The notes beneath the pieces were generated by a model. It made no database searches. It was not told where the DNA came from and saw nothing but the letters and a program-made list of their open reading frames with translations. Position numbers and translations under genes: made by a program. Shown piece after piece: positions 7,710 through 32,000 of a stretch of DNA of 32,000 nucleotides. Within the stretch, counting starts at the first letter, position 1. Each line of letters opens with the position of its first letter. Source of the DNA: an uncultured Clostridia bacterium (GTDB lineage Bacteria; Bacillota; Clostridia; Christensenellales; Aristaeellaceae); assembly GCA_934647235.1 (NCBI GenBank), contig CAKUFG010000006.1:66950-98949 (forward strand), in the 5' to 3' direction.

Positions 7710-8498
7710 TTAGAGCAGCGGGTACGCCTTGGGCGGCACGCCATGCGCGCGCAGCACCGCGTTCAGCCGCGCCATCGCGTCGTCATCCATGCCCGGCAGG
7801 GCGTGGATTTCGCGGGTGCTGAAACGGTTGAAATCGGGCAGATAGGCAATGCCAAGCGCACGCATGGCCTGCACGGCCTCGGCGGGCAGGCAGGCAAAGG
7901 CCAGCTCCGCTGCGGGCCGCTGCGCCGGGGTCTTGTAGGGCAGGGTGGCCTCATAGGCCGCCGCCTTGGCGGGATCCACCTCAAAAATGGGATCCTCGCG
8001 CCACACGCCGCTCACACCGTCCAGCGCGCTGGGCTGCAGCGCCATCGCCATCAGCGCGTCGCCCACGCCGTAATCATCGCTGATGCCGTATTCCCGCGCC
8101 GGACGGAAGCCAAAGCGCGGATAGTAATCAGGATGCCCGTGCAGGCACACGATGCCAAACCCCATGGCGCGCGCCTGGTCCAGCGCGTAGCGCAGCAGCG
8201 CCCCGCCCACGCCGCGGCCCTTCCAATCGGGCGCCACGCTGAGCGGGCCGAAGGTAATCGCATCGTGCCGCTGGCCATCGGGGCTGTCGATGCTGCCGTG
8301 GCTGAACATCACGTTTGCGATCACGCGGCCATCCTGCTCGGCCACGAAATCCAGCTCGGGGATAAAGCACGGCGCGTCGCGCAGGATGTGCGCCAGGTAG
8401 TGTTCAACGCAGCCCGGCTCAAACTCGCCCCAGAAGGCGTCGCGGGTCAGCAGCTCGACGGTGTAAAAATCCTGTTTATTTTCAAGACGAATATTCAT
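7710..8498 (-). CDS. GNAT-family N-acetyltransferase with a C-terminal extension of about 95 aa
   Basis: ATG at 8498 (MNIRLENKQDF...) lies 8 nt after GGAGG. GNAT core motif RGRGVGGALLRYAL. The C-terminal tail has helix-hairpin-helix-like repeats. Confidence 0.8.
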   Translation of the reverse strand: MNIRLENKQDFYTVELLTRDAFWGEFEPGCVEHYLAHILRDAPCFIPELDFVAEQDGRVIANVMFSHGSIDSPDGQRHDAITFGPLSVAPDWKGRGVGGALLRYALDQARAMGFGIVCLHGHPDYYPRFGFRPAREYGISDDYGVGDALMAMALQPSALDGVSGVWREDPIFEVDPAKAAAYEATLPYKTPAQRPAAELAFACLPAEAVQAMRALGIAYLPDFNRFSTREIHALPGMDDDAMARLNAVLRAHGVPPKAYPLL

Positions 8499-8653
8499 TT
8501 TCATTTCCTCCATATTTTGTGATAGGTGAATAGGGAGCAAGGACGAGGGGGAGAGACGAGGGGACGTTACTTTCTTCAGTGAAGAAAGTAACAAAGAACC
8601 GGTTTTGCGTAAAAGCTGCTGGAATTAAACTGAAAGACAGGATTGCTGTAGAG

Positions 8654-8777
8654 CCCCGTGGCAGGGAAAAACTTGAATCGCTCGGTCTGGAGCAAGCTCC
8701 GCCCGCGCGCTTTTGCCTTTTTCCCCTATGGCCGTGCTGCGCACGTCCGCGCCGATTAAAATCGGCGTGCCACGGGG
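8654..8777. repeat. X module, alpha type (copy X1)
   Basis: CCCCGTGGCA (8654-8663) and TGCCACGGGG (8768-8777) close a multi-hairpin domain. Confidence 0.7.
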
Positions 8778-8877
8778 GCGTAGTTGGATGCGGAACCCTT
8801 GTGCGGTGATTTGCAATAGCTGGAGAGTGTACTCACCCAAAGGCTTCTCCTTGAGGAGAGGCTCCGCCGTAGGCGGT

Positions 8878-8955
8878 GGTGAGGTGTAGACCACGCAGTG
8901 GTCGTTATCATAACTATATAAAAGATAACGCCGCTGCGGCGGCTACACCTCATCC
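8878..8955. repeat. Y module, cloverleaf-like four-way junction (copy Y-A)
   Basis: GGTGAGGTGTAG and CTACACCTCATCC close three hairpins (GACCAC-GCA-GTGGTC, GTTATC..GATAAC, CCGC-TGCG-GCGG). Confidence 0.7.
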
Positions 8956-9059
8956 GAGCGGCTAAAGCCGCCCACCTTCCCCTCCAAGGGGAAGGCTTTT
9001 GGTGACCGTTCTATCTTACACTCGCTTTCCGCTGCGTCTGATTCCCACACCCAACCACG

Positions 9060-9185
9060 CCCCTCGTGGCACGCTGATCGCAGATCAGCGCGGGCGTGCG
9101 CAGCACGACCAAGGGGGAAAGCAGGAAGCGAACGGAGGAAAGCTTGCTTTCATCCGGGCGGTTCAGGCTTTCACCTGCCACGGGG
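9060..9185. repeat. X module, beta type (copy X3), inverted relative to X1
   Basis: CCCCTCGTGGCA and TGCCACGGGG close the domain. Nearly identical to 31378-31501. Confidence 0.7.
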
Positions 9186-9301
9186 CGGGTGGCCAGGGCC
9201 ACACCCAGTTTTATTCAATTGACTTTCACGTCGCACGCAGCTTTCTTTGGTACTTTCTTGGGCTCCAAGAAAGTACCGTTTTCCTCGTCCCCCTCGTCCC
9301 C

Positions 9302-10312
9302 TTATCTCCGGTTCTTGCGGTTGTACCTGGCAATTTGCTTCATTTTTTCATGCTTGGCGGCCAGCTGCGCCGCGCGGTCGGATTCCGCCGTCAGCGCCTG
9401 ATAGCGCTGCCATAGCCCCGCGTCCAGCGCGCCGCTTGCCAGCGCGGCGCGCACGGCGCAGCCCGGCTCGCAGGTGTGGGTGCAGTTGGAAAAGCGGCAG
9501 CGGCCGATCAGCTCCTCCACCGGCGCAAAGCTGTCGCGCAGCCCCTCACGGGCGAAAAGCAGCCCCATCTCGCGCATGCCGGGGGTGTCGATAATCATCG
9601 CGCCGCCGGGCAGCATCAGCAGCTGGCGCGCGGTGGTGGTGTGCCGCCCCTTGCCATCCTGGGCGCGGATGGCGGCGGTTGCCTGCGCATCCTGTCCCAG
9701 CAGGGCATTGATCAGGCTGGATTTGCCCACGCCCGAGCTGCCTAAGATCACCAGCGTGCGGCCGGGGGCCAGATAGGGCACAAGCCCCGCCATGCCCGCG
9801 CCCGTGGCGGCCGATACCGCCAGCGCCGGGACGTCGGGAAAGCGCTGCTGCACGGCGGCCAGATAGGGCTGGGCATCGGCGCACAGATCGGCCTTGGTCA
9901 GCAGGATCACCGGCGCGCCCCCGCTCTGCAGGGCCAGCGCCAGCGTGCGCTCCAGCCGCGGCAGGTTAAAATCCTGATTGAGCGATTGCGCAATCAGCAC
10001 GGTGTCAAAATTGGCCGCCACGGCCTGGGCCACGCGCCCCGGCGTGGGATCGCGGCGCGCAAAGCAGCTGCGGCGCGGCAGGGTGCGCACAATGGCGCTG
10101 TCGCCCGCCTGCTGCCAGGCAAGCAGCACAAAATCGCCCACGGTGGGAAACGTCTCGCCGCCGTAGTAGTACGCGCCGCCGCGCAGGGTGGCAAAGCCCG
10201 CGCCCGCATCGCACACAATCTGATAGCGGCCGCGATGCTCGCCTACAACGCGCGCGGCCAGGCAGGGGGAGTAGTCGTTGGGGTCGGTATACCCATAAGC
10301 TGAGATATGCAA
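9302..10312 (-). CDS. rsgA: Ribosome small-subunit-dependent GTPase A
   Basis: Circularly permuted GTPase motifs (TKAD, GSSGVGKSS, DTPG) and a C-terminal zinc knuckle (CRFSNCTHTCEPGC). TTG at 10312 lies 8 nt after GGAGG and is preferred. The listed start at 10351 is also TTG. Confidence 0.85.
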   Translation of the reverse strand: MHISAYGYTDPNDYSPCLAARVVGEHRGRYQIVCDAGAGFATLRGGAYYYGGETFPTVGDFVLLAWQQAGDSAIVRTLPRRSCFARRDPTPGRVAQAVAANFDTVLIAQSLNQDFNLPRLERTLALALQSGGAPVILLTKADLCADAQPYLAAVQQRFPDVPALAVSAATGAGMAGLVPYLAPGRTLVILGSSGVGKSSLINALLGQDAQATAAIRAQDGKGRHTTTARQLLMLPGGAMIIDTPGMREMGLLFAREGLRDSFAPVEELIGRCRFSNCTHTCEPGCAVRAALASGALDAGLWQRYQALTAESDRAAQLAAKHEKMKQIARYNRKNRR

Positions 10313-12021: not shown

Positions 12022-12252
12022 GATACGAAAAGGGACGAGGGGAACGAGGAAACGGGGGAAACGTTACTTTCTTCAGTCATAGCGCCGCCGCAGGCGGCTG
12101 AGGGCGCGCAATTTTGCAAATTGCCGCCCGAAACCCGCGCTTGCCGCAAGGCAGTAGCGCGGGGCGTACAAGGAAAGTAACAAAGAACCTGTGTGTGACG
12201 TAAAAGTCAAGCTGATAAAACTGGGAGTGGCCCTGTCCACCTGCTGCCCCAC

Positions 12253-12372
12253 CCCCGTGGCAGGGAAAATTCGCGTGTCCGGATCGGCGCAAGCGCCATC
12301 CGTTCACTTGAATATTTCCCCTATGGCCTGGCTTCGCCAGCCCGCGCCGATTAAAATCGGCGTGCCACGGGG
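12253..12372. repeat. X module, alpha type (copy X2)
   Basis: CCCCGTGGCA (12253-12262) and TGCCACGGGG (12363-12372) close the domain. It shares the hairpin CGCCGATTAAAATCGGCG with X1. Confidence 0.7.
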
Positions 12373-12477
12373 CATGTTGGTTGATTGCGAAAACTCTGCG
12401 CGGCGATTAGCGGCTGTTGGAAAACGCACTCACCAAAAGGCTTCTCCTTGAGGAGAAGCTGTCAGCGAGAACTGACT

Positions 12478-12554
12478 GATGAGGTGTAGGCTGCGCAGCA
12501 GCCGTTAGCAAAGCTATATAGAGGATAACGCCGCAGCGGCGGCTACACCTCATC
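12478..12554. repeat. Y module (copy Y-B)
   Basis: GATGAGGTGTAG and CTACACCTCATC close three hairpins. Confidence 0.7.
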
Positions 12555-12777
12555 CGCTTCACTGCGTTCAGCACCTTCCCCTCGGAGGGGAAGGCTTCCG
12601 TAGGCTGTGCCAATGCAGCAGCATACCTTCGCCACTTGCAAAGCGCACGACTATAAAAGCCTTCTCCTAAACGGGAGAAGGTGTCGAGCGCACCGCGAGA
12701 CGGATGAGGGGGTTCCCTCAAACGTTCCCCATTCATCCCCTCCCCATCCTTAATTAGCAGTAAAAGGAGATAAAACA

Positions 12778-13893: not shown

Positions 13894-14151
13894 ATATGAA
13901 ATGCGCTATGCTTCAGGACAGAGAATCGGGTAAGATACATGTGGATTTTTATTGGTGAAATTTATAACTCTATAGCCGTTTTTAGTTTTAGGCAGGAAAA
14001 TGATTTGGAAAAACAGAACGAAGCAAAGGTTATGCTGCGGCATCAGCGATTGAAAGCCGCATATATGCAGACGCAGTGAAGCTGGACAAAGCAAATGCAA
14101 TGTGTTATTTTTTCTATGCTCAGGTACGCAAGTTAAGGGAGGCTGCATATC

Positions 14152-15903
14152 GTGGAAGGCCAGAAGAGAAGCATAAGGCGAGAGATTACGATTGCAATTT
14201 TAATCAGCGCGGCCATACAGCTTATTTTGGTTTGGATGCTGTTTTTGCTGCACTACGTAAATGCAGCAGCGATGGTTCAGCGTTATGTGATTGCGGACAC
14301 ACAAAAGAGCATGGCGCAAATGGATGCTTATCTAAAGCAGCAGATGAACACAGTGGTGGAACTGTCGTACAGCAATTTTATAGAAGCATATGCGAAAGCG
14401 ACGCATGCAAGACGATATGAAACATACCCTTATATTTCACAGGCGTTATACGAAATGCTCCTGGATCAGCAAACCGTTGGGTGTACGCTGCTCTTTGAGA
14501 ATGATACATCGCTGCGCATCGGCATAGGAGTGACTGATTATCTGCTGAAGGATGCAAGAAGCATTGGCGGATTTCAGCATTGGAGCGGGCAGAAGCGATC
14601 CTTACTTTTGTGGTCTGCACCGATCTATGGAAACGAACTGCTGCTGCAGAGACGGGGAGATTTCTGGATCGTTTTTGACATGGATGCATTGATGAAAAAG
14701 TACTTTGGCGCTGTTTCTGCCTGCTTCAGCGGGAAAGAATTGATTGGCTGCTCCTATGACCCGCAAAAGCTGGATCCGTTTGAAAATAAGGCTGCCGCGT
14801 CTTTTTTGCAAGGTGAAACCGGCACGGTTCATATTGATGGAGACGTATATGTTTATGCGCATTCTGTCAGCAGCGTTTTGGACTGTGATGTGCTTGCGCT
14901 GTATAAAGAAGCGGATATGATCAAGACGGATTCCGGGTTTTTGATGTCCTGTGCCCTATTCAGCTTGATTATCTGCGGGATTTCCAGCCTTGTGCTGTTT
15001 TCGCTGCAAACCAGGGTCAGCGCTCCAATCAATGGCCTGTGCAGTCAGGTAAGGGGGATCAGAAACGGCAGCCAGAAGAAAATTGGTGAAAGCGACGGCA
15101 GCTTTACTGAACTGGACTACCTGACGGATGAGATCAACAAGCTGCTGGATACACTGGCGGAACAAGCGATTGTCGAAAACCAGCTGCAGCAAAACCTGCT
15201 GGCATCGCGCACACATTATATGCAGGAACAGGCATTGCGCATGCAGACACAGATTAATCCGCACTTCCTGTACAACAACCTGGAATGCATCCGGGGAATG
15301 GCGCGGGATGGCGCATGGGATATAATTTGCCGGATGAGTACATCGATGGCGCGCATTTATGCCTATGCGGCCCGCCGCAGTGCATTGACAGCTGCGCTGC
15401 GGGAGGAGCTGCAGTGTGTAAAAGAATATGAAACCATTATCGAATTGCGTTATGACGGACAGTTCCGCTTTGAATGCGCTATCGCGCCGGAATGTCTGGA
15501 TATGCAGCTGCCTCGAATGACTCTGCAGCCTGTATGCGAGAACAGCGTTATCCATGGCAGAAGAATGGATGGCACCCAGCAGGTTATACGAATAGCGGCG
15601 TGCGTGCAGGGTGAGTATATGGAGCTGACGGTGTGCGATAATGGCAGGGGAATACCGCAAAAACGCATGGAAGAGCTGAACGAAGAAATATACCAATGGC
15701 GCGAGAAAAAAGGAGAAAAGCTGTATGAGGACCGCATAGGGCTGATTAATATCAGCCAGCGTTTGTTTATCCTTTATGGCAAAAACAGCAGCATTCACAT
15801 GGAACAAGACCAGGATAACGGGACGCTGACGCGCATCCGAATTCCCAAGCGCCTGCAGGAGACATCCACGCAGACACCCGATGAGAATACACAAAATCGC
15901 TGA
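14152..15903 (+). CDS. Sensor histidine kinase, YesM/LytS-type (His_kinase + HATPase_c)
   Basis: GTG start 9 nt after AAGGGAGG. Two TM segments flank an extracytoplasmic domain of about 230 aa. Motifs QINPHFLYNNLECI and CDNGRGIP are present. Confidence 0.85.
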   Translation: MEGQKRSIRREITIAILISAAIQLILVWMLFLLHYVNAAAMVQRYVIADTQKSMAQMDAYLKQQMNTVVELSYSNFIEAYAKATHARRYETYPYISQALYEMLLDQQTVGCTLLFENDTSLRIGIGVTDYLLKDARSIGGFQHWSGQKRSLLLWSAPIYGNELLLQRRGDFWIVFDMDALMKKYFGAVSACFSGKELIGCSYDPQKLDPFENKAAASFLQGETGTVHIDGDVYVYAHSVSSVLDCDVLALYKEADMIKTDSGFLMSCALFSLIICGISSLVLFSLQTRVSAPINGLCSQVRGIRNGSQKKIGESDGSFTELDYLTDEINKLLDTLAEQAIVENQLQQNLLASRTHYMQEQALRMQTQINPHFLYNNLECIRGMARDGAWDIICRMSTSMARIYAYAARRSALTAALREELQCVKEYETIIELRYDGQFRFECAIAPECLDMQLPRMTLQPVCENSVIHGRRMDGTQQVIRIAACVQGEYMELTVCDNGRGIPQKRMEELNEEIYQWREKKGEKLYEDRIGLINISQRLFILYGKNSSIHMEQDQDNGTLTRIRIPKRLQETSTQTPDENTQNR

Positions 15904-15963
15904 AGATGTCCATTTTTCTGCCAGATTAAGCATGATATAATGCGAAAAAAGGAGGCTGATCTC

Positions 15964-16899
15964 ATGGTAAGTGCAAAGGATGCGCGGCGCGCCGTTCCCA
16001 TATGGAAGCGCATGCTGCAGGCGAAGTACATTTATTTGATGCTGATTCCCGCCATTTTATACTACGCGGTATTTGTATATAAGCCTATGTACGGCGTGCT
16101 GATGGCATTTCAAAAGTACAACGTCCGTAAGGGAATCTGGGGCAGCAAATGGATTGGGTTTGCAAACTTTGAACGCTTATTCAACAGTCCGGCGGCGCTT
16201 CGGGCGGTGATGACTACACTGGAAATCAGCGTTACCCGTTTATGTATTGAGTTTTGCTGCCCGATTATACTGGCGATTTTCATCAATGAAATGCGAGGGA
16301 CAAAGCTCAAGCGCGTATACCAGACGATATACACTTTTCCCCATTTTTTGTCCTGGGTAATCGTGGGTTCCATTATCAAGATGATCTTCCGCGAAAGCGG
16401 TTTGGTGAATTCGCTGCTTGGTTTGATGGGGGTTGAACCGATCAATTTTCTGGCATCCAAAAGCTTTTTCCGGCCGCTGCTGTATGGCAGCTCGATATGG
16501 AAGGGCGTGGGCTGGGCGGCCATTATTTATATGGCGGGCATTGCCGGCATCAGCCCTGAGCTGTATGAGGCGGCTGAGGTAGACGGAGCTGCCCGGCTGC
16601 AGCGGATCATTCATATTACGCTGGCCGGCATTATGCCCGTTATCATTATTCAGCTGATCCTGTCGGTCGGCGGCCTGCTGGGCGGCTCCTTTGATCAGAT
16701 TTATAACCTGCAAAATGCGGTGGTTAAATCTGTGGCGACAACCATTGATATTTATGTATATGATATCACCTTCAGCGCGGTGCCTGATTATGGGTTCTCT
16801 ACAGCGGTGGGACTTTTCCGATCTGTAATTAATATCATCTTGATGTTTATTGCCAACGGCGTTATCAAAAGGATTAACGGCCAGGGCTTGTTAGGCTAA
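15964..16899 (+). CDS. Sugar ABC transporter permease (LplB/YesP-like)
   Basis: ATG at 15964 lies 8 nt after GGAGG. The N-terminus resembles LplB (WKRMLQAKYIYLMLIPAILYYAVFVYKPMYG). Confidence 0.85.
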   Translation: MVSAKDARRAVPIWKRMLQAKYIYLMLIPAILYYAVFVYKPMYGVLMAFQKYNVRKGIWGSKWIGFANFERLFNSPAALRAVMTTLEISVTRLCIEFCCPIILAIFINEMRGTKLKRVYQTIYTFPHFLSWVIVGSIIKMIFRESGLVNSLLGLMGVEPINFLASKSFFRPLLYGSSIWKGVGWAAIIYMAGIAGISPELYEAAEVDGAARLQRIIHITLAGIMPVIIIQLILSVGGLLGGSFDQIYNLQNAVVKSVATTIDIYVYDITFSAVPDYGFSTAVGLFRSVINIILMFIANGVIKRINGQGLLG

Positions 16900-16918
16900 A
16901 GGAAAGGGAGAAAGCACG

Positions 16919-17881
16919 ATGAACGCATCTGCCAAATATCAGAAAAATGTGCAGGCTGCGGCGCTGCGCACTGGCTTCAAAAAGAAAAAAAGAAAAAAGC
17001 TGGACCTGCTGGATATCATTATTTATACAGTGCTTACGCTGCTGGCGGTGTCTATTATCATTCCCATTTATCATGTAATTCTGGTTTCACTGGCGAGCAA
17101 CAGAACCTACATGACCAATCCGGGCATGATGTTTCTTAAGCCTTCAGATATTACGCTGATTAACTATAAGTACATTTTTGAGTCGCCTATTTTAGCAACC
17201 GGCTATAAATCGACGCTTTTCATCACCGTATTAGGCACGGTTTACGGCATGAGCATTACGCTGCTGGCAGCATATGCGCTTTCCAGGCCGGCTTATCCAG
17301 GCAAAAAGCTGTTCTTTGTGCTGTTTATTCTGATTCCAATGTACTTTGGCGGCGGGATGATTCCGGCATACCTGAACCTGCGCGATCTGGGGCTGCTGAA
17401 CAAGCAGATAACCATTGTTATTATGATGGGCGTATCTGGATTCAACATGCTGATCATCAAGAGTAATATCGAGCAGATGCCCGAGGGCTTGCTGGAGGCG
17501 GCCAGACTGGACGGCGCTTCGGAGCTGGTTATATTTGTGCGCATCGTTTTGCCGCTGCAGCTGCCTATCATTGCTACGTTTTCCTTGTTTACGGCGGTAG
17601 GATACTGGAACGAGTGGTTCTGGCCCATGATGGTGCTGGACAAATCCGAGCAGTGGCCGCTGCCCCTGGTGCTGCGGGCCGTGGTGAACAGCGGCATCGG
17701 CAATTTCCAGGATGCTGCCAGCGAAAGCATGCAGTCCTATAAGAATTTGCAGGATTCGGTTTCCGCTACCGGCACTACCATGGCCACGCTGTTTATGACA
17801 ATGCTTCCCATCATGGTAACATATCCTTTCCTGCAAAAGTACTTTGTAAAGGGCACCCTTGTGGGCGCAATTAAAATGTAA
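16919..17881 (+). CDS. Sugar ABC transporter permease (LplC/YesQ-like)
   Basis: 320-aa polytopic protein. EAA-like loop LEAARLDGASELVIFVRIVLP. Confidence 0.85.
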   Translation: MNASAKYQKNVQAAALRTGFKKKKRKKLDLLDIIIYTVLTLLAVSIIIPIYHVILVSLASNRTYMTNPGMMFLKPSDITLINYKYIFESPILATGYKSTLFITVLGTVYGMSITLLAAYALSRPAYPGKKLFFVLFILIPMYFGGGMIPAYLNLRDLGLLNKQITIVIMMGVSGFNMLIIKSNIEQMPEGLLEAARLDGASELVIFVRIVLPLQLPIIATFSLFTAVGYWNEWFWPMMVLDKSEQWPLPLVLRAVVNSGIGNFQDAASESMQSYKNLQDSVSATGTTMATLFMTMLPIMVTYPFLQKYFVKGTLVGAIKM

Positions 17882-17961
17882 TCAATGCCTGGGTATACAC
17901 GGGCTTGATCGTAATCGTAATGTTTCTCTCATGACCGACCCAAAAGAAAGGAGCACTCCCG

Positions 17962-19518
17962 ATGAAAAAATGGTTGACCCTGCTTCTGGCGCTTGCCCTG
18001 CTGCTGCCTCACTGTGCTGCACTGGCGGACGAGCCCGCTTACGGCCCTTATGATAAGCATGTGAGCTTTACTGCCAGCCAGTATAGCCAGATCACTGAAG
18101 GCGGCGATTATACCCACGATGAAGTGTACTATAAGCTGCAGGACATGTTCAATTTTGACTGGGAGCTGTATGCCGTGGATGGCAGCGCCTGGCATGAAAA
18201 GAACACCATGTGGATTACCGGCGGCACGATGCCTGATATCCTGTTCTTTGGCTGGAATGCCGTCGAATACCAGCAGTATGCCGAGCAGGAGCTGATTAAG
18301 CCCTTGCCGGACGGGTGGGAAAGCAAGTATCCTAACCTGGCTGCGCAGGTGGAGGCTACGGGCATTGCCGAAGCCATCAAGGTAAACGGAAAGACCTATG
18401 GTATTCCGCATACGATTATTCATCTGGTCGGCCCCAAGAACTTTGTTTACGCTATGCATACCCTGTATTACTATCGCCTTGACTGGGCGAAGGAGCTGGG
18501 CTATGATTGGGGCGTAAGCTGCACGCTGGATGAATTTACGAGCTATCTGCGTGACTGTAAGGAAAAATTCGGCAGCGTCGGCATGGTGCAGAGCACCGGC
18601 ACGCTGCTTAAACCGCTTCTGTATCAGTTCAGCAAAGGCTACAATGCGATCTACAAGAATGAGGAAGGCAAGTACGTGCTTGGCTTTGCGGACAAGGGCA
18701 CGGTTGAAGGCACTCAGTTCCTGCGCGATATGTACAACGAGGGCCTGATCTCCAAGGAGTATTACCTGAGCAACTATAATGAATGGTATGCCGGTAAGGC
18801 GGCTGTTATCGAATATTGGGGCGGTCCGCTGCATCCCCAGGATATGGCGAACAACTGGCTTGCTGCCGCCAGCGAACCCAACGCCAAAACCCTGGATGAT
18901 GTGAAGAATATTATTGGCACTGTTACTGTGACCGATAATAACGGCGTGTATCATGCGGCAGGTACGCAGGGCAATTTCTGCTTCGGCTCCCTGTTCAGTC
19001 CCGATCTGGATGACGAAACCTTCGATCGTATTCTGGCCATGTATGATTATTTTGCTACGCTGGAGGGCTTTGAGCTGACGCAGCTGGGTATTCGCGGCGT
19101 GGATTGGGACAAGGATGAGGAAGGCCATTATACGCTGCTGTGCCCCGAGATTCTGGATGGTACCTATGCTGTGATCCGTGAAAAGTATCCCTCGATGTAT
19201 TATCTGTACCTGCGCAACGTGCTGTCCGATTCTGCTGCCTATATCAATCCGCTGATCGATTCTTATTGGCGGCAGATGAGCGACGATATGTACGAATTCC
19301 GCTGCAGCCAGGATATCGTGCCCTTTGACGCGGATCTGGCTTTCTATTCCAGCGATGCGGCGAATCATTATTCCATCAACTGGAACACTGCGGTGGATCG
19401 GCTTGTGCTGGACAGCAGCCTGGATATCGAAACTGAAGTGGCGCGCCTGATTGAGGAAAACCGCTTTATGTGGGAGCCGCTTATCAACGAACTGAATGAG
19501 AAATTCGGCGCCAAATAA
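17962..19518 (+). CDS. Large extracellular sugar-binding protein (LplA/LipO-like SBP)
   Basis: 518 aa. Signal peptide MKKWLTLLLALALLLPHCAALADE, with a Cys but no canonical lipobox. Size and context fit Lpl-type SBPs. Confidence 0.8.
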   Translation: MKKWLTLLLALALLLPHCAALADEPAYGPYDKHVSFTASQYSQITEGGDYTHDEVYYKLQDMFNFDWELYAVDGSAWHEKNTMWITGGTMPDILFFGWNAVEYQQYAEQELIKPLPDGWESKYPNLAAQVEATGIAEAIKVNGKTYGIPHTIIHLVGPKNFVYAMHTLYYYRLDWAKELGYDWGVSCTLDEFTSYLRDCKEKFGSVGMVQSTGTLLKPLLYQFSKGYNAIYKNEEGKYVLGFADKGTVEGTQFLRDMYNEGLISKEYYLSNYNEWYAGKAAVIEYWGGPLHPQDMANNWLAAASEPNAKTLDDVKNIIGTVTVTDNNGVYHAAGTQGNFCFGSLFSPDLDDETFDRILAMYDYFATLEGFELTQLGIRGVDWDKDEEGHYTLLCPEILDGTYAVIREKYPSMYYLYLRNVLSDSAAYINPLIDSYWRQMSDDMYEFRCSQDIVPFDADLAFYSSDAANHYSINWNTAVDRLVLDSSLDIETEVARLIEENRFMWEPLINELNEKFGAK

Positions 19519-19553
19519 AACAATCTGACCTGCCAAAGGGCGGAGGTGTGAAG

Positions 19554-20270
19554 ATGTACCGAGCTATGATTGTGGACGATGACAGATGGGCCCTGAAGGA
19601 CATCTGCTCCACGTTTCATTTTCAACAGCAGGGCTTTGAGCTGGTTTCTTCCTGCACAAGCGGAGAAGAAGCCGAGGCTGCATTTGAACACCTTCGCCCT
19701 GATGTTTTGATTACGGATATCCAGCTGGGCGGTATGGACGGATTGGAGCTGATGCACCGCTGCCTGGCTATGAAGAACGATCTGATTACAATTATCGTAT
19801 CCGGACACAGCGATTTCAGCTACGCAAAGGACGCTCTGAACGGGGGCGCGACGCACTACCTGCTTAAACCGATTGACGGAAGCGAAGCTGTTCTTGCGCT
19901 GCAAAAATGCTACGCTGCGCTTACCTCGCGCAAACCGAAGGATAACGAAGACTGCATAGCGAGCATCTGCAGCTATGTTGGCGCGCATCTGTCGCCCTCT
20001 CTGACGCTGGCGGAAATTGCAAACCAGTATTATCTGAACGTTACCTATCTTTCAGAACTGTTTCAAAGAAGAATGGGCGTTTCATTTTCTGCGTATAAGA
20101 AAAAATGCATGCTGGAGAAGGCGTGCGATGTGCTTAAGCAGAGGGATTCCCGCGTAATGGAGGCGTCCGAAAGCTGCGGCTTCCAGGATATTCATTATTT
20201 CTCTCGCTGGTTCAAGGAACAAACAAAAATGAGCCCCAAGGAATACAAAGAGCTATTTTGCCGCCGCTGA
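19554..20270 (+). CDS. Response regulator with AraC-type HTH output (YesN-like, compact)
   Basis: ATG at 19554 lies 7 nt after GGAGG. REC domain (IVDDD, VLITDIQLGGMDG, LLKP) plus a single AraC HTH (FQDIHYFSRWFKEQTKMSPKEYK). Confidence 0.85.
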   Translation: MYRAMIVDDDRWALKDICSTFHFQQQGFELVSSCTSGEEAEAAFEHLRPDVLITDIQLGGMDGLELMHRCLAMKNDLITIIVSGHSDFSYAKDALNGGATHYLLKPIDGSEAVLALQKCYAALTSRKPKDNEDCIASICSYVGAHLSPSLTLAEIANQYYLNVTYLSELFQRRMGVSFSAYKKKCMLEKACDVLKQRDSRVMEASESCGFQDIHYFSRWFKEQTKMSPKEYKELFCRR

Positions 20271-20289
20271 TAAATGGAGGATAATAAAA

Positions 20290-21570
20290 ATGACGGAATG
20301 GCATTATGCATTATACGGTGACGGCGTTCACGACGATACGGACGCCATTCAGGAGCGCTTGGACAGCCGAATAGCCTGCGTGTATCTGCCCGCGCCGAAA
20401 AAACATTATTGTATTAGCCGGACGCTGAAAATTCACAGCAATCAGACGCTGCGTTTGGATTCAACCACGGAAATCCGCCTGATGCCTAAATGCGATTTCT
20501 GCATGATTACCAATGCAGACCCGCGCGGTGAAGATCAGCATATCACCGTCGAAGGCGGAATATGGAACATGGACAATATGAACCAGACGCCCTTTATGGC
20601 GCATTTGAAGGTGCTGCCGGGCGATCGGTATCCGCGCAACTATGCGCCGGGCTTTCCGCCGCTGAGCGATAAATGGAATAATGCTGCAAATCAGGATGGC
20701 CAATACGATCTCCCGGAAGAATGCGGGTATATGAGCGCCGAGGGCAGCATCTGCACAATGGTGTTTTCTCATATCAAATATTTTACGCTGCGCAATCTGA
20801 CCATTAAGAACCCGCGATATTTTGCAACCTATATGTTCTATCTTCAGTATTTTACCATTGAGAATATCACCTTTGATTTCAATTACGGCAATCCATATGC
20901 AATTCATATGGACGGCATTCATCTGGACGGCGGCTGCAGGTTTGGGCATATCCGCAACCTGCAGGGACGCTGCTTTGACGATTTGCTGGCGCTCAACGCA
21001 GACGATTCGATCTATGGTCCCATCGAGGATATCAGCGTTGACGGACTATACAGCGATAATTGCCACAGCGCTGTGCGCATGCTTTCCACAAAGTCCTGGA
21101 TTCGCAACATCAATATACAAAATGTATACGGTACTTATTGGCAGTATGCAGTCGGCATCACGCGCTTTCATTATCGTCCTGACGAGGTGAACAGCCTGGG
21201 GCTGTATGATAACATAATGCTGAAAAATATCTGTGTTTCCAAGGCGCCCAGATACAGCCTGTACTGCAAGGATGACAGCTATGTTTACCCGCTGATTTTT
21301 ATCGAGCGTTTGCTGCATATCGGCAGGCTGCATATTGAAAATCTACACCGGTTGGAAAAGGTTACGCCGATCGATACCATTTATGTGGGCGAAAAAACGG
21401 ATATAAGCGAAATGGTGATTACTGATTCTTCGCAGGAGAATCGCCTTGCGGAGCCGTTCCCATTCCTGCGCAGCGAGGGCATGATTGAAAAACTGATTAT
21501 TTCCAATACAGACAGCGGAAAGGACGATCTTTTGGCGGGAAACATGCCAAAGCTGTTTTTTTCAAGATGA
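20290..21570 (+). CDS. Right-handed beta-helix protein, GH28-related/pectate-lyase-superfamily-like; no signal peptide
   Basis: The N-terminal motif YGDGVHDDTDAIQERLDS is typical of the Pectate_lyase_3-type fold. There is no hydrophobic N-terminus. Confidence 0.6.
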   Translation: MTEWHYALYGDGVHDDTDAIQERLDSRIACVYLPAPKKHYCISRTLKIHSNQTLRLDSTTEIRLMPKCDFCMITNADPRGEDQHITVEGGIWNMDNMNQTPFMAHLKVLPGDRYPRNYAPGFPPLSDKWNNAANQDGQYDLPEECGYMSAEGSICTMVFSHIKYFTLRNLTIKNPRYFATYMFYLQYFTIENITFDFNYGNPYAIHMDGIHLDGGCRFGHIRNLQGRCFDDLLALNADDSIYGPIEDISVDGLYSDNCHSAVRMLSTKSWIRNINIQNVYGTYWQYAVGITRFHYRPDEVNSLGLYDNIMLKNICVSKAPRYSLYCKDDSYVYPLIFIERLLHIGRLHIENLHRLEKVTPIDTIYVGEKTDISEMVITDSSQENRLAEPFPFLRSEGMIEKLIISNTDSGKDDLLAGNMPKLFFSR

Positions 21571-22841
21571 TCCAGGAGAAGCTTTCTATGAACAGGCTGC
21601 GTGGATTGGGCAGAATTCTCTCGGCTCAAATTGGGCTGAACATGCTGAGCAAATCCTATAAACGCTATTTGCTTACCTATATGCTGTTCACCATTGGCGG
21701 AACGATATCGAGCAGCTACTTCAGCTTTTTTCTTCTGCGTGCAACGGGCAGCGAAAGCTCGCTGCGCATATACAACCTGCTGATTGCCTGCGTGCAGCCG
21801 TTTATCATGCTGCCTGCGCTTGCAGTGCTGAAACGATGGTCGGTATCAGTGTGCATGCGCATTGGTCTGCTTATTCACACTGCGGCGTATGCGCTGCTGG
21901 CAGCCAGCGGAAATGCGGATATGGCTACTGTATATGCTGTATCGGCAATGCTCTCGTCGGGCAATGCATTTATCTTTACGGCTTATACGCCGCAGCAGCT
22001 GGCTTATGCAACGGATGAAAACCGGGATGCTTGCTACGGGGTCGTCAGCGTATTGAGTACAATTGTCAGCCTTGTGCTGCCCCTGACAACGGGGCTGTTT
22101 ATCAGCCGCTTTGACGATTTGACGGGCTATTCCGTTCTGTTTGCAGCATCATCGCTGATTACCTTAGGCAGCTTCGCCGCTTCTTTTCGGCTGACGCCTG
22201 TGGTATATGGAGATCGGCGGCAGAAAAACGTACTGCGCAGAACGATGAAGGCTTTCCTGGGCAGCAAGAAAATTTGGGCCAGCATGATTGCAACCATGCT
22301 GGACGCTATGCGCGCGCACGGATTCGGCTTTTTTTCTGCATTGCTGGTATTTGATCTGATTGGCAGAGAAAGCGTAATGGCGGTGTTCAGCGTTGCGACA
22401 ACCATTGTGAACATGATGATGAGCATTGCTTACACGCGGATGGCAACGCCGCGTAACCGCGGCTGGCTGATGCTGCTGGGCGCGGTGGGCTATACCATCG
22501 CCGTAGCGATCGTATGCCTGGACCATACGTTTACAGGGTATATCATGTATGCGCTGCTGAGCACTATTGTAAGCGTATTCATTTCCAATCCCGTTTTAAC
22601 CAGCTATCTCAGCGCAGTGCAAAACGATTCTTTCCTGTGTCAGCATGGCGCGGAGGTGCACTTGCTGCGTGAAGTCTTTGTGGCCTCAGGGCGCGTAATT
22701 GGCTTGCTGCCAGCTTTTTTGATGCCTGACCCGACAGAATACGCGGCAGTTATGATGCTTTTGTTCGCCGCCGTGCAGATTCCTGCTGCGCTGCTGACAA
22801 AGTACCTGCAGCGCAGGGTTAATTTGGAGCAATCGACATAA
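21567..22841 (+). CDS. MFS-type transporter
   Basis: About 12 hydrophobic spans. The ATG overlaps the preceding stop (ATGA). Internal starts are possible. Confidence 0.7.
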   Translation: MIQEKLSMNRLRGLGRILSAQIGLNMLSKSYKRYLLTYMLFTIGGTISSSYFSFFLLRATGSESSLRIYNLLIACVQPFIMLPALAVLKRWSVSVCMRIGLLIHTAAYALLAASGNADMATVYAVSAMLSSGNAFIFTAYTPQQLAYATDENRDACYGVVSVLSTIVSLVLPLTTGLFISRFDDLTGYSVLFAASSLITLGSFAASFRLTPVVYGDRRQKNVLRRTMKAFLGSKKIWASMIATMLDAMRAHGFGFFSALLVFDLIGRESVMAVFSVATTIVNMMMSIAYTRMATPRNRGWLMLLGAVGYTIAVAIVCLDHTFTGYIMYALLSTIVSVFISNPVLTSYLSAVQNDSFLCQHGAEVHLLREVFVASGRVIGLLPAFLMPDPTEYAAVMMLLFAAVQIPAALLTKYLQRRVNLEQST

Positions 22842-22905
22842 ATAGCCGGGACAAGGGCGGGCTTGTCTGCTGACAAGGGCGGGAATGATAATAAGAAAGC
22901 CAAAT

Positions 22906-22953
22906 AAAAAGCAGCGCATCTGCCGAAGCAATTTCGGCAGATGCGCTGCTTTT
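22906..22953. terminator. Bidirectional terminator between the convergent MFS and dehydrogenase genes
   Basis: Perfect 17-bp stem GCAGCGCATCTGCCGAA (22911-22927) pairing with TTCGGCAGATGCGCTGC (22933-22949), flanked by AAAAA and TTTT. Confidence 0.85.
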
Positions 22954-22981
22954 GGGGCTGCATCGGGCATGAGAGCATGCG

Positions 22982-30185: not shown

Positions 30186-30776
30186 ATGGCCAAGCGTTTG
30201 CTGATCACCGGCTTTGATCCCTTCGGCGGGCAAAGCGTCAATCCTGCCTGGGAGGCGGTATCCCGCCTGCCCGCGCACGTGGGCGATTGCGATGTGCACG
30301 CTTTGCAGGTGCCCACGGTGTTTGGCCTGGCGGCGCAGCGCGCCATCGAGGCGGCGCAGACCCTGCAGCCCGATATCATCCTGTGCGTGGGGCAGGCGGG
30401 CGGCCGCGCGGCGGTCACGCCCGAAATGGTGGCCATCAACCTGCGCTATGCCGCCATCCCCGATAACGCGGGCCTGCAGCCGCAGGATATTCCCTGCGTC
30501 GAGGACGGCCCGGCGGCATACTTTGCCACCGTGCCCGTGCGGGAAATGGCGCGCGCCATCGCACAGGCCGGCCTGCCGGGCAGCGTATCCTATACGGCGG
30601 GCACGTTTGTGTGCAACGATCTGCTCTATACCCTGCTGCATCATTACCGCGATACCGCCGCGCGCGTGGGGTTCATCCATGTGCCCTTCCTGCCCGAACA
30701 GGCCAGGGACGGCCAGCCCGCCCTGGCGCTGAACGATATCGTGCGGGCGCTGTGCGCAGCGATTGAGACGCTTTGA
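30186..30776 (+). CDS. pcp: Pyroglutamyl-peptidase I
   Basis: MAKRLLITGFDPFGG..., plus catalytic-region motifs GTFVCN and FIHVP. ATG lies 8 nt after GGAGG. Confidence 0.9.
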   Translation: MAKRLLITGFDPFGGQSVNPAWEAVSRLPAHVGDCDVHALQVPTVFGLAAQRAIEAAQTLQPDIILCVGQAGGRAAVTPEMVAINLRYAAIPDNAGLQPQDIPCVEDGPAAYFATVPVREMARAIAQAGLPGSVSYTAGTFVCNDLLYTLLHHYRDTAARVGFIHVPFLPEQARDGQPALALNDIVRALCAAIETL

Positions 30777-30878
30777 GGCGCGTAATCCGCCGCTGCCTGT
30801 GGCAGATGAAGGCGGATGCAGCGCCAATGAGGCAACGAGTTTTGCAAGCGTCGGCGCCGCAAAACGACTATGCCGAAT

Positions 30879-30955
30879 TGTGAGGGCCGTAGCCGCCGCA
30901 GCGGCGTTATCTTATATAGTTATGATAACGGCTGCTTCGCAGCCTACACCTCATC
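30879..30955. repeat. Y module, degenerate copy (Y-C1, inverted)
   Basis: The three internal hairpins are intact. The closing helix is interrupted (GTGAGGGCCGTAG versus CTACACCTCATC). Confidence 0.55.
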
Positions 30956-31199
30956 AGTCAGCTCTCGCTGACAGCTTCTCCTCAAGGAGAAGCCTTTTGG
31001 GTGATCGCACTCTCCAACGCATGTAAACTGCCGCGCTCCCCCCTCATCCGTCTCGCTGTGCGTTCGACACCTTCTCCCGAGGGAGAAGGCTTTTATAGTC
31101 GTGCTTTTGCTAAACTAAGCTTCGAGAACGCACTACCGCATTGGCACAGCCGCCAAAAGCCTTCCCCTTTGAGGGGAAGGTGGCGAATGTAATGAGCCG

Positions 31200-31274
31200 G
31201 ATGAGGTGTAGCCGCCGCAGCGGCGTTATCTTATATAGTTATGATAACGGCTGCTTCGCAGCCTACACCTCATC
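31200..31274. repeat. Y module (Y-C2, inverted)
   Basis: GATGAGGTGTAG and CTACACCTCATC close three hairpins. Confidence 0.7.
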
Positions 31275-31377
31275 AGTCAGCATTCGCTGACAGCTTCTCC
31301 TCAAGGAGAAGCCTTTTGGTGGCTGTTCTTTCCAGCTATCGATAGCCGTTATGCTTGATTTTCGCACCTAGCCATCG

Positions 31378-31501
31378 CCCCGTGGCACGCTGATCGCAGA
31401 TCAGCGTGGGCGTGCGCAGCACGACCAAGAGGAAAAGCAGGAAGCGAACGGAGGAAAGCTTGCTTTCATCCGGACGGTTCAGGCTTTCACCTGCTACGGG
31501 G
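31378..31501. repeat. X module, beta type (copy X4)
   Basis: CCCCGTGGCA (31378-31387) and TGCTACGGGG (31492-31501) close the domain. By manual alignment it differs from 9060-9185 by about five substitutions and one 2-nt indel. Confidence 0.7.
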
Positions 31502-31653
31502 GTAGGGCGGCAGGTGGCCAGGGCCACTCCCTGTTTTCGTCCAATAGACTTTTACGTCACACACAGGTTCTTTGTTACTTTCTTCACTGAAGAAAGTAAC
31601 GTCCTCCCCGTTTCCCCGCCCTCCTCGTCCCTCCATGCCAGAAAGGAACCGTC

Positions 31654-32000
31654 ATGATGACCATTCAGCCCCTGCGCGATGTGCGCGCGTGTCTGCCCTT
31701 TGTGCTGGCGATCAACGCGGATCCCTGCCTGGGCGATCCCATGCTGCGCACCGCCGAGCAGCTGCAGGTTAACCTGCTCAGCGTGCAGGATCAGCCCGGC
31801 CATCAGGCGTTCGGCGCGTATGAGGGCGAGCGGCTCGCCGGGCTGTTTGTGTTTTTGATTTTGCCGGGCGAGCGCTATATCGAAATGCTGGCCGGGCTTA
31901 CCCGCGAGCCGGCGGCCTGGGAGGCCATGCTGGCGCACCTGCGCGCGCAGTATTCCGGCTGTCAGGCAGACTTTGTGTTCAATCCCATGAACGCCCCGCT
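31654..32000 (+). CDS. Hypothetical protein, 3' end outside window (absent from the ORF track because no stop is reached)
   Basis: ATGATG at 31654, then an open frame to the window edge (MMTIQPLRDVRACLPFVLAINADP...). G+C-rich third positions match the neighbouring genes. Weak RBS. Confidence 0.55.
   Translation, partial: MMTIQPLRDVRACLPFVLAINADPCLGDPMLRTAEQLQVNLLSVQDQPGHQAFGAYEGERLAGLFVFLILPGERYIEMLAGLTREPAAWEAMLAHLRAQYSGCQADFVFNPMNAP

Follow-up and report, generated by a model that had tools for sequence, protein, structure and literature searches.

A foldback mosaic repeat between pcp and a GNAT gene, and its extragenic relatives in uncultured gut Clostridia

The stretch of DNA analysed here (the window, 32,000 nt from an uncultured Clostridia bacterium) contains a spacer between a pcp gene and a GNAT gene of which about 856 of 877 nt (858 nt in the initial annotation) are occupied by a single composite repeat member, copy C. 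The spacer belongs to an undescribed family: its members are mosaic repeats, extragenic and non-coding, with a hierarchical palindromic ('foldback') organisation, and its hosts are uncultured gut Clostridia/Eubacteriales. The upstream protein, Pcp, covers the Peptidase_C15 model up to position 200 of 204; the final pcp codons, GAGACGCTTTGAGG, resemble the end of one of the repeat modules, Z (GAGACGGATGAGG), possibly by coincidence.

Three other copies are found in the window, and all four sit between co-directional genes. Copy S (7620–7711, unstranded) is a minimal element made of a purine arm, the palindrome PAL and a pyrimidine arm. Copy A (8539–9303, unstranded) is a complete foldback of ~765 nt that provides the canonical order of the modules: purine arm, PAL, K, X arm, linker, h1, small hairpin and Y in the left half, followed after Y by small hairpin, h2, linker', X', K', PAL and pyrimidine arm. 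The two halves of copy A pair with each other to give one long hairpin with Y (8877–8956) at its apex. Copy B (12031–12750, plus strand) is a half element located between pgk and tpiA, in which the loop of PAL is interrupted by module W (12078–12172; module length 88–95 nt). The succession h, small hairpin, Y, small hairpin, h is repeated across many loci and MAGs.

As judged from alignments, copy C is made of two parts, an inverted B-type half element (31039–31634) and an additional Y–h unit upstream of it (30774–31038); all the features described below are given on the plus strand, except PAL, which has none. The left edge of the additional unit is joined to the pcp stop codon via TGAGG microhomology: the left copy of this 5-nt direct repeat (30774–30778) includes the stop TGA (30774–30776). 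The 5' stem of the Y module is split by a 102-nt insert (30779–30880) consisting of GChp (30779–30825), a hairpin by folding, and V (30826–30880), a conserved frame AATGAGGCAACGAG...ACTATGCCGAATTG around an exchangeable hairpin cassette. Without this insert, the unit spans 30881–31038, directly before the inverted B-type element. It comprises Y#1 (30881–30955), a GTAG-tagged, REP-doublet-like module whose interior is inverted with respect to copies A and B and whose 5' stem is the variant TGAGGGCCGTAG, the first five bases of which form the right TGAGG copy; a small hairpin (30957–30972) and the terminator-like hairpin h1' #1 (30973–31000), with its CTTTTGG tail, which together cover 30957–31000; and a truncated linker, or tail (31001–31038), homologous by eye to the reverse complement of A 8783–8840, the linker adjoining h1. 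The Y'–h–tail–Z' adjacency recurs at another locus in L159, one of the comparison sequences (L numbers).

The B-type part starts with Z' (31039–31145), the reverse complement of B 12598–12712 (95%), which contains hairpin h3 (31069–31096). It is followed by the inverted hairpin h2' (31146–31183), 89% complementary to A 8972–9009; by Y#2 (31200–31274), an intact REP-doublet-like module inverted relative to A and B (inverted match 98%); and by a second small hairpin (31276–31291) with h1' #2 (31292–31319), together 31276–31319. Then come linker l' (31320–31377), the reverse complement of a B-type linker (12386–12520 versus 31232–31366, 80%), and the X arm, initially named X-beta (31378–31537), which carries the 'X2' cassette allele (95% to A 9062–9185). 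The K' linker (31547–31573) is 100% complementary to 12173–12208 and constitutes the inner inverted repeat of the large elements, K and K' bracketing the interior in L159. The element ends with PAL (31574–31600), a 27-nt perfect palindrome, GTTACTTTCTTCACTGAAGAAAGTAAC, identified by repeat match, and with the outer inverted repeat, the pyrimidine arm P' (31601–31634), downstream of which the next gene begins at 31654.

The coordinates and matches given in the initial annotation hold, far above chance. The right 265 nt (31370–31634), assigned to the right end of copy A, are 81.5% identical (global alignment) to A 9054–9303, with 95% in the core (31378–31501 versus A 9062–9185), whereas the left arm of A, reverse-complemented, gives no more than 70.8%; the palindrome (31574–31600) and the pyrimidine arm (31601–34) reported there were both found. 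Similarly, segment 31030–31190, described as the reverse complement of B 12571–12715, matches it at 72.9%, as compared to 48% for the direct control and 44–52% for shuffles. This homology extends much further: 31039–31582 is colinear with the reverse complement of B 12173–12712 (77% over 556 nt, E = 4e-113), and 31586–31632 matches the reverse complement of B 12031–12077. The module order, which had been taken for shuffled, is therefore not: from 31039 onwards, copy C is an inverted B-type element, colinear over ~600 nt, and the sole difference from copy A in this part is the orientation of the h1–Y–h2 centre relative to the X-beta arm.

The two Y modules had been described as inverted relative to copies A and B, with the caveat that near-palindromic hairpins alone might create this appearance. 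Indeed, a Y unit is 65–73% identical to its own reverse complement. Pairwise alignment gave values above this baseline: Y#2 is 85.4% and 89.0% identical to the reverse complements of the Y modules of A and B, respectively, and 73.5% and 70.6% identical to them in direct orientation. For the whole h1–Y–h2 centre, the figures are 78.5–83.8% (reverse complement) and 67% (direct). Reverse-complement identity thus exceeds direct identity by 12–18 points for Y and by 11–17 points for the 175-nt centre, and since it goes beyond the self-palindromy of Y, the inversion is a true one, for which near-palindromic sequence does not account.

The presence of two Y modules in copy C, initially interpreted as a duplication, was confirmed, and it was traced to an indel of 319 nt with a 112-nt direct repeat at its borders (30889–31000 and 31208–31319, 2 mismatches). 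Y#1, which had been considered degenerate, is identical to Y#2 at 110 of 112 positions from GTAG on, and its 5' stem alone differs. A simple tandem duplication with a period of 319 was ruled out, as the repeat spans 112 nt only. Assemblies made independently, with MEGAHIT and with SPAdes, from different samples (L013, L015, L016 and L014) contain the double-Y allele; this recurrence shows that it is not an assembly artefact. The pattern of the indel would be accounted for by unequal or homologous recombination, or by slippage, at least as well as by insertion.

Module turnover was observed among strains with identical Pcp, TpiA or GNAT proteins, by comparison with metagenome contigs, many of which break inside repeats, so that copy number and full architectures are under-sampled. 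At the pcp locus, strains with identical Pcp have a single Y, a pair of Ys, or a pair of Ys together with ~200 nt nested within h3. The 112-nt repeat is present once in L011, where exactly 319 nt are missing, and h3 contains ~200 nt (V', W' and one further hairpin) in L012, L014, L017 and L018. Y#1 of the window is 1 nt away from Y#2 of L014, yet 6 nt away from Y#1 of L014, distances that indicate local gene conversion. At the pgk–tpiA locus, ten strains with identical TpiA have spacers of 390–756 nt, which differ by the absence of PAL and the X arm (with a junction at the microhomology GAAACG/AAAACG), by the presence or absence of W, by an X1/X2 cassette swap and by the orientation of the centre; all four combinations of X1 or X2 with Y+ or Y- are present. 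A clean in-situ inversion was ruled out at this locus, inverted and direct alleles being different in sequence. Finally, at the S locus, two independent samples (L159 and L164) have P–PAL–[~762-nt interior]–PAL–P' where the window has P–PAL–P', an excess of ~790 nt (the ~762-nt interior and the second PAL) between flanks that are 96–98% identical. The proposal that modules recombine or insert independently thus stands to the extent that the element is not one rigid unit and that discrete gains, losses, replacements and inversions occur at shared loci.

Small modules do lie inside the loops or stems of others, as the initial comparison of the mosaics to nested insertions implied. W is found in the loop of PAL at at least 12 loci, and the PAL halves covary; V' and W' are found inside hairpin h3 in L014; and GChp+V is found inside the Y 5' stem, bracketed by TGAGG, at about 8 loci besides copy C. 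The left end of copy C lacks a purine arm, as initially noted, and also the palindrome. The GC-rich hairpin described at 30777–30825 exists, but not as a replacement of the purine arm: within Y stems, it accompanies V as a module of the family. Indeed, in the ~8 other contexts of GChp, V always comes after it and the Y 5' stem is always the host site; (G/A)TGAGG precedes GChp+V at every locus that has this unit; and GChp is 96% identical in L033, at a distance from any pcp gene. The V module is also found flipped, with another apex cassette, within the insertions of L014, L012 and L002. The possibility that the GC hairpin is the pcp terminator was discarded because no T-run follows it and because the same module is present elsewhere. 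The junctions of GChp+V are identical in 23 of 23 copies, and the stem variant TGAGGGCCGTAG was seen only immediately 3' of V (23/23). Shared junctions of this kind point to a single origin of each nested composite followed by copying, rather than to repeated independent insertions, as far as can be read from the sequences; each composite has a single junction type, and may have arisen by insertion or by recombination or deletion.

The Y module consists of an 11-bp stem, invariant and terminated by GTAG/CTAC, and of two hairpins, a GC hairpin that is invariant and a variable one with a covarying stem, separated by a spacer of ~26 nt with complementary ends (GTTATC...GATAAC). When 17 distinct Y units were aligned, 94% of the cells turned out to be paired; the basal stem did not vary (17/17), and four of the five pairs of the variable hairpin are changed on both sides. 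Each end of all 34 distinct Y units has GTAG and a hairpin (at the 3' end, the top strand reads CTAC), a count that is partly built in since the extraction pattern itself demanded GTAG and CTAC. The asymmetric invariant hairpin, GCCGCTGCGGCGGC, is on the 3' side in copies A and B and, as its complement, on the 5' side in copy C. Symmetric 'double Y' units exist at L005:4575 and L009:4457. The window holds three Y units in 32 kb, and 7 MAG species have exact Y cores, at 1–6 loci each, in fragmented assemblies that break at repeats. By analogy of layout, Y has the anatomy of a GTAG-tagged REP doublet (REPIN-like). Such dimers, which are associated with RAYTs, have been catalogued (Di Nocera et al. 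2013, PMC3733652; Bertels & Rainey 2011, PMC3116915); a REP dimer is defined as two inverted REPs, 20–100 bp apart, that can fold as one hairpin, and published head-to-head GTAG-REP heterodimers share the layout of Y (PMC3733652).

The folding of the copies is very strong, with z values ranging from -10 to -16.5: the copy C region folds at -390 kcal/mol (z = -12.8 versus shuffles) and copy A has an MFE of -440 kcal/mol (z = -16.5). In the four copies tested, plus and minus strands fold equally well (-440/-441 for A, -345/-348 for B and -390/-401 kcal/mol for C), and the sense strand of copy S folds worse than the opposite strand; in these four copies, the equal folding argues for a DNA-level symmetry rather than for selection on one RNA strand. 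Region 30600–31800 contains nine terminator-like hairpins, as compared to 1.2 expected, and no promoter-like site. No Rfam family matched anywhere in the window at the gathering threshold; at E <= 1, the four copies matched only generic miRNA-hairpin models and whalefall-1 (E = 0.0005–0.6), far below gathering. No tRNA or tmRNA gene was found.

Searches for relatives and for mobility genes were negative as well. The element sequences had no match among plasmids, phages and viral contigs, and the h2'–Y–h1' centre had none by blastn among 5,426 E. coli genomes. A full-text literature search with six module sequences returned unrelated papers only, and a keyword search for nested intergenic hairpin repeats in Clostridia returned nothing relevant. 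Pfam analysis of 20 window proteins revealed no transposase or recombinase, and no mobility gene was found in the 32 kb. The RAYT cognate to REPs, a Y1/HUH transposase (PF01797), is a single-copy gene of the same genome, usually flanked by REPs. An HUH/Y1 motif scan combined with phmmer detected no RAYT-like protein among 4421 ORFs from ~1 Mb of element-flanking DNA, the phmmer query being an E. coli RAYT sequence and a single-copy gene not being expected in a sample of ~1 Mb; a first HUH motif pattern had given 15 matches, each of them a spurious ORF on the antisense strand. In the ~1 Mb of loci, a transposase-like ORF was never seen between paired PALs; the gene that is enclosed by facing elements encodes a MATE transporter and is flanked by two separate elements. 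Inspection by eye of the outer ends of S, A and B revealed no evident target-site duplication. The direct repeats noted are the 5-nt TGAGG around GChp+V and the 27-nt PAL on both sides of the large interior.

We propose, with a probability of about 0.6, that the elements constitute a REP/BIME-like family of mosaic foldbacks in Clostridia, remodelled by recombination and hairpin slippage and possibly also by transposition. The anatomy, inversion, strain polymorphisms, junction sequences and structural covariation are direct observations. The enzymology and the direction (gain or loss) of each event are our inference, and three routes of remodelling at the DNA level may be envisaged. Homologous recombination or gene conversion between dispersed and adjacent copies would swap cassettes, replace the centre by an inverted paralogue and, where the 112-nt sequence is repeated, generate the 319-nt indel. 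Hairpins would promote slippage of replication from one flanking direct repeat or microhomology to the other, and thereby convert PAL–interior–PAL and solo PAL into one another, and produce the L001 deletion and the L089 junction. Lastly, single-stranded loops or stems may be targets for transposition of the smallest hairpin units (Y, W and GChp+V), which in the case of Y might rely on a RAYT-like HUH enzyme; no transposase, RAYT or recombinase was found in the window or in the ~1 Mb of flanks, which leaves this transposition part unsupported. Effects on the host are probably incidental, and consist of hairpins and weak terminator-like stems in the transcripts of co-directional gene pairs. A stronger version, in which the Y–h units form an active REPIN-like system in Clostridia, served by an unrecognised single-copy HUH/RAYT-like or other hairpin-specific ssDNA enzyme, and in which the foldbacks grow as one module after another is inserted into the loops and stems of those already present, appears doubtful to us.

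Several other explanations have to be weighed. The elements might be classical MITEs, with the purine/pyrimidine arms (and K/K') acting as terminal inverted repeats for the transposase of a related IS and the mosaic resulting from successive cut-and-paste nesting. The inverted terminal repeats (arms, PAL and K/K'), the discrete presence/absence polymorphisms among strains, the TGAGG repeat that brackets GChp+V and the fixed position of W in the PAL loops of several PAL sequence variants would all be in keeping with this, but the outer ends of S, A and B have no evident target-site duplication, no transposase is found in the window or between PAL pairs in the ~1 Mb of loci, the stem variant to the right of GChp+V is never seen uninterrupted, which points to one origin and not to repeated insertion, and long repeats (27 nt and 112 nt) or microhomology mark the borders of the indels, as for recombination or slippage. 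We therefore hold the MITE explanation to be unlikely. The same judgement, in a somewhat firmer form, applies to a functional structured RNA, i.e. modules that would act as cis-acting mRNA stabilisers, RNase processing sites or attenuators, co-transcribed with the flanking genes and under selection for structure. The location between co-directional genes, the strong folding and the excess of terminator-like hairpins speak in its favour, and the compensatory changes in the variable Y hairpin and the PAL halves are as compatible with a functional RNA as with our reading. However, no Rfam family is reached at threshold, both strands fold alike (worse on the sense strand for S), elements of one type may lie with or against the direction of transcription (B versus C), and the length at a single locus varies from 90 to ~900 nt, or from 390 to 756 nt, despite identical flanking proteins, which is hard to reconcile with a required RNA.

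Two further possibilities concern the inversion itself. A site-specific recombinase acting on flanking inverted repeats could flip the h1–Y–h2 centre in situ, as in an inverton or shufflon, and thereby cause phase variation: both orientations coexist at pgk–tpiA among strains with identical TpiA, the centre is indeed flanked by inverted repeats (h1/h2 and the arms), and symmetric 'double Y' units are known. Yet the inverted alleles (L002, L004 and L006) differ from the direct ones in the Y apex, the small hairpins and the linkers, as if by replacement with a paralogue, and the region has no promoter-like site nor the window a recombinase gene, which makes such a switch very improbable. Even less credible is the absence of any real rearrangement, the inversions being an appearance created by near-palindromic hairpins or metagenome misassembly: Y is partly self-palindromic and many contigs break inside repeats, but the excess of reverse-complement identity, the opposite positions of GCCGCTGCGGCGGC in A/B and C, and the recurrence of the alleles across independent samples and different assemblers all go against it.

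If the remodelled-mosaic reading is right, the elements record the growth, inversion and collapse of palindromic repeats in bacteria. Since alleles differ by whole modules beside identical flanking proteins, the elements can serve to tell strains of an uncultured gut lineage apart with high sensitivity, in a manner comparable to typing by REP, BOX or MIRU, and they account for the breaks of short-read assemblies at particular intergenic sites of these genomes. Blocks of hairpins of 390–756 nt (pgk–tpiA) and 560–1080 nt (after pcp) may alter operon expression strain by strain. Clostridia would join the bacteria that have a REP-doublet architecture, and the identity of the mobilising enzyme, if any, becomes a testable question. 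Were the active REPIN-like reading true, a hairpin-targeting mobile DNA would cause strain-level hypervariability in gut bacteria, and GTAG-REPs would exist in a phylum absent from the 2013 catalogue (PMC3733652).

Among known systems, GTAG-REPs and REPINs share with Y two GC-rich stem–loops (stems of 5–7 bp, loops of 3–4 nt), each preceded by GTAG on its own strand and arranged as an inverted pair that has its GTAG termini outside and a spacer of ~26 nt and folds as a larger hairpin. They also share the extragenic location between co-directional genes and the existence of subfamilies with complementary stem changes. The differences are that Y has no sequence similarity to the REPs of E. coli, that its GTAG, unlike that of GTAG-REPs, is part of the invariant 11-bp basal stem, that its hosts are Clostridia, in a phylum outside those listed for GTAG repeats (PMC3733652), and that, in comparison with REPINs, no RAYT gene was found here and Y is only the innermost layer of a far larger foldback.

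The BIMEs of enterobacteria are likewise extragenic, strain-variable mosaics, in which palindromic units alternate in orientation and the conserved non-palindromic motifs between them are drawn from a limited set, a likeness that is one of architectural analogy only; note that insertion sequences are known to target REP sequences (PMC3733652). Compared to BIMEs, the present elements are far larger (up to ~0.9–1.1 kb) and form a single hierarchical foldback, with outer purine/pyrimidine arms, a 27-nt perfect palindrome and at least 10 module types, some nested in the loops and stems of others. Correia/NEMIS, ERIC, RUP, bcr1 and the pneumococcal BOX, which we compared by description only, partly with the background given in PMC3733652, are also non-coding, have terminal inverted repeats, form long hairpins when transcribed, vary in presence among strains and may be modular (BOX A-B-C). 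In contrast to these, our elements have neither an outer-end target-site duplication nor a parental IS that we could find, and their size and depth of nesting are greater. Overall, the family resembles the known mosaic repeats of bacteria more than it does a new kind of system.

Copy C is a composite member of a foldback repeat family that resembles REP/BIME elements but is far larger and hierarchically nested. The repeat search of the window (G+C about 60%) revealed a single non-coding family with four members, each flanked by co-directional genes: copy S (7620-7711), a minimal form reduced to arm, palindrome (PAL) and arm; copy A (8539-9303), a complete foldback; copy B (12031-12750), a half element inside the pgk-tpiA pair; and copy C (30777-31634), which takes up the interval from the pcp stop codon (30774-30776; gene 30186-30776) to the next gene, beginning at 31654. 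Gene content is ordinary housekeeping and includes oligopeptide ABC transporter components, a YitT-family protein, GNAT, RsgA, PGK, TpiA, YhbY, DnaX, an aldo-keto reductase, Lgt, Pcp and a second GNAT. The window contains no tRNA gene, no transposase or recombinase gene was found in it, no Rfam family matched anywhere in it at threshold, and four sizeable ORFs (41-970, 5257-6111, 6190-6855 and 17962-19518; 309, 284, 221 and 518 aa) had no Pfam match at E <= 1e-5. It also carries a strain-specific island of ~9.1 kb (13898-22981; G+C 0.46-0.53 vs about 0.6 elsewhere) that starts immediately 3' of the yhbY terminator and encodes a histidine kinase, an AraC-type response regulator, ABC permeases, a pectate-lyase-like protein and an MFS transporter; in L003 (handles L001-L170 denote the metagenome or MAG loci compared with the window), 13897 is joined straight to 22982 (99% identity), and other strains have at this site a LysR regulator, an ABC transporter and another repeat element.

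As judged by folding, a single strand of copy A forms one ~765-nt hairpin (-440 kcal/mol, z = -16.5) whose layers are, from outside to inside, a purine arm, PAL, linker K, an X arm, a linker, hairpin h1, a small hairpin and, at the apex, the Y unit; the second half is the mirror-image series and closes with a pyrimidine arm. PAL is a perfect palindrome of 27 nt whose halves covary (GTTAC/GTAAC, GTTTC/GAAAC, GATTC/GAATC, GGTAC/GTACC). In copy B, the palindrome loop is interrupted by the 88-95-nt module W, whose position there is fixed at 12 or more loci, and module Z stands where the second X arm would be. The purine arms (7620-7657, 8539-8565 and 12031-12062; around 2350-2500 in L002-L010) are built of GACGAGGG-like octamers in tandem, the number of which varies among strains (1 to 3 units at pgk-tpiA); the S arm of the window has a ~20-nt tandem duplication that is absent from L159. 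Runs of four G-tracts in these arms suggest a putative G-quadruplex potential.

Comparison of C with A and B bore out every match in the initial annotation. The right 265 nt of C match the right end of A (81.5% aligned, 95% across 124 nt), the control, i.e. the reverse complement of the left arm of A, giving only 70.8%; 31030-31190 is the reverse complement of 12571-12715 (72.9% vs 44-52% for controls); and the left end has no purine arm. The second Y unit of C, Y#2 (31200-31274), is inverted with respect to A and B (reverse complement, 85.4% and 89.0%; direct, 73.5% and 70.6%), and since a Y unit matches its own reverse complement at 65-73%, this inversion exceeds what near-palindromy alone would give. 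The module order, by contrast, had been called shuffled: 31039-31632 runs colinear with B over its full length, in reverse (77% over 556 nt, E = 4e-113, with the arm in addition). Relative to B, then, nothing is out of order and this part of C is simply the element inverted, and the sole difference from A is how the h1-Y-h2 centre is oriented against the X arm of C (31378-31537). Nor is the first Y unit, Y#1 (30881-30955), degenerate as had been stated, since from GTAG onward it is identical to Y#2 at 110 of 112 positions (30889-31000 and 31208-31319) and differs in the 5' stem alone.

The 49-nt GC-rich hairpin at the left end of C (30777-30825; GChp module, 30779-30825) is not peculiar to this locus. 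Together with the neighbouring module V, GChp constitutes a 102-nt unit (30779-30880), which is 96% identical in L033, from MAG W1P21.023, where it lies away from pcp and interrupts a Y unit within its 5' stem (TGATGAGG, GChp+V, TGAGGGTCGTAG); about 8 further metagenome contexts have it inside the Y 5' stem, with the Y interior in either orientation. Because TGAGG is present both at 30774-30778, taking in the pcp stop codon, and at 30881-30885, in the layout seen in the other contexts, C opens with a Y unit in which a nested GChp+V unit, flanked by 5-nt direct repeats, interrupts the 5' stem. The stem variant TGAGGG(C/T)CGTAG was found only directly after V (23/23; the uninterrupted stem motif has 117 matches, both strands summed), which argues that the composite probably had one origin and was then copied; its junctions do not count as evidence of repeated insertion. 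The last pcp codons and stop (30760-30778, GAGACGCTTTGAGG) look like the end of module Z (GAGACGGATGAGG), the module found ahead of GChp+V in L119. The pcp 3' end and element-derived sequence may overlap, in which case at most a few Pcp residues would be affected, since Pcp aligns with the Peptidase_C15 model up to position 200 of 204.

The strongest evidence comes from strains, i.e. contigs encoding a protein exactly identical to that of the window, and it bears out the proposal that modules turn over independently and nest. The pgk-tpiA spacer ranges from 390 to 756 nt across ten strains: L001 has neither PAL nor X arm, with a junction at the microhomology GAAACG/AAAACG; W is limited to L003, L007 and the window; the X arm is one of two alternative cassettes, X1 or X2; and the h-Y-h centre is inverted in L002, L004 and L006, so that all 4 combinations of cassette and Y orientation are present at this locus alone. 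A clean flip of the centre is disfavoured: the inverted alleles differ from the direct ones also in the Y apex, small hairpins and linker, and hence look like replacements by a paralogue. At pcp-GNAT, L011 has one Y and is short of exactly 319 nt; L013, L015 and L016 are the same as the window, with two; and L014 and L012 carry ~200 nt extra (inverted V and W and another hairpin) inside hairpin h3, as do L017 and L018 over the extent of their contigs. Recurrence of the double-Y allele in independent samples and with different assemblers excludes misassembly as its source. Y#1 of the window is 1 nt from Y#2 of L014 vs 6 nt from Y#1 of L014, a pattern indicative of gene conversion acting on these neighbouring repeats. 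At the S locus, L159 and L164 read arm, PAL, a ~762-nt interior with K and inverted K at its ends, PAL and arm, where the window has arm, PAL and arm; since the flanks match (96-98% identical) and the window has a single PAL, the interior plus one PAL copy is a discrete indel. The Y'-h-tail-Z'-h3 adjacency of C (primes, inverted versions) also lies within this interior. Module turnover may involve insertion, recombination, gene conversion or hairpin-promoted slippage, of which the repeat-bounded indels favour the last three.

The exact Y core is present in 7 MAG species of uncultured gut bacteria (labels: Eubacteriales, Clostridia, Clostridiales or just 'bacterium'), two from roe deer caecum and sheep rectum, the titles of the others giving no source; only W1P21.023 among them has the full family. 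Because more distant MAGs have ~190-nt h-Y-h units without the rest of the family, some in tandem, the Y unit is an element in its own right, either older than the arms or more widely distributed. In a roe deer caecum MAG (L032), two such units are in direct tandem (5316-5720) and a third is single (4075-4245), with a longer Y interior (96 nt) and a different variable hairpin (GGATGCGA...TCGCATCC). The K-PAL pattern matched >120 metagenome contigs, many from human gut samples; plasmids, phages, viral contigs and E. coli genomes gave no match to the family, and no paper containing the module sequences was found. Short-read contigs often stop within the repeats (L166-L170, 887-928 nt; L015-L020; many of L039-L158), and several consist of the GNAT gene alone, between S and A; assemblies of this lineage break systematically at the family. 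In L058, L089 (1523-3042), L096 and L099, a 455-aa MATE-type efflux gene is flanked by a pair of separate elements, each with its PAL and arm end pointing toward it, with a ~1.48-kb spacing repeated across samples. The enclosed gene is not a transposase, and the arrangement probably represents a single conserved locus flanked by two elements.

DNA-level dynamics are favoured over a required RNA because in A, B and C either strand folds as well as the other, element types are found both along and against the direction of transcription, and loci tolerate versions of 90 to ~900 nt. The h hairpins are terminator-like in one orientation only (CTTTTGG tail), three being in the sense direction in C and none in B, within the pgk-tpiA pair; this is suggestive, though only weakly so, since the clear terminators of the organism have longer T-runs.

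Among 17 distinct Y units, the 11-bp basal stem (TGAGGTGTAG/CTACACCTCA) and the GC hairpin GCCGCTGCGGCGGC are invariant, the other hairpin is variable, with 4 of its 5 pairs altered on both sides, and paired cells make up 94% of the total. 'Double' Y units of 103-107 nt (L005, 4575-4681; L009, 4457-4559) are fully symmetric palindromes (variable hairpin, AT spacer, constant hairpin at the apex, inverted AT spacer, inverted variable hairpin); they could be intermediates that give either Y orientation through asymmetric deletion. Each Y half consists of GTAG followed by a GC-rich stem-loop, with the GTAGs outward, as in the published GTAG-REP head-to-head heterodimer, which has a 20-100-bp spacer, the ends of which are often complementary (PMC3733652). 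That survey covers Proteobacteria, Cyanobacteria, Chloroflexi and the PVC group, Firmicutes not being among them (PMC3733652). The defining partner of GTAG-REPs is the RAYT transposase, and Y is like them in repeat anatomy; no RAYT was found in the window or in ~1 Mb of loci, a negative that carries no information for a single-copy gene. The family is REP/BIME-like with a candidate REPIN-like core, a testable assignment. It is undescribed and fast-evolving, in an uncultured gut lineage, and not a new kind of system: it is similar to REP/BIME elements but much larger, with a hierarchically nested foldback.
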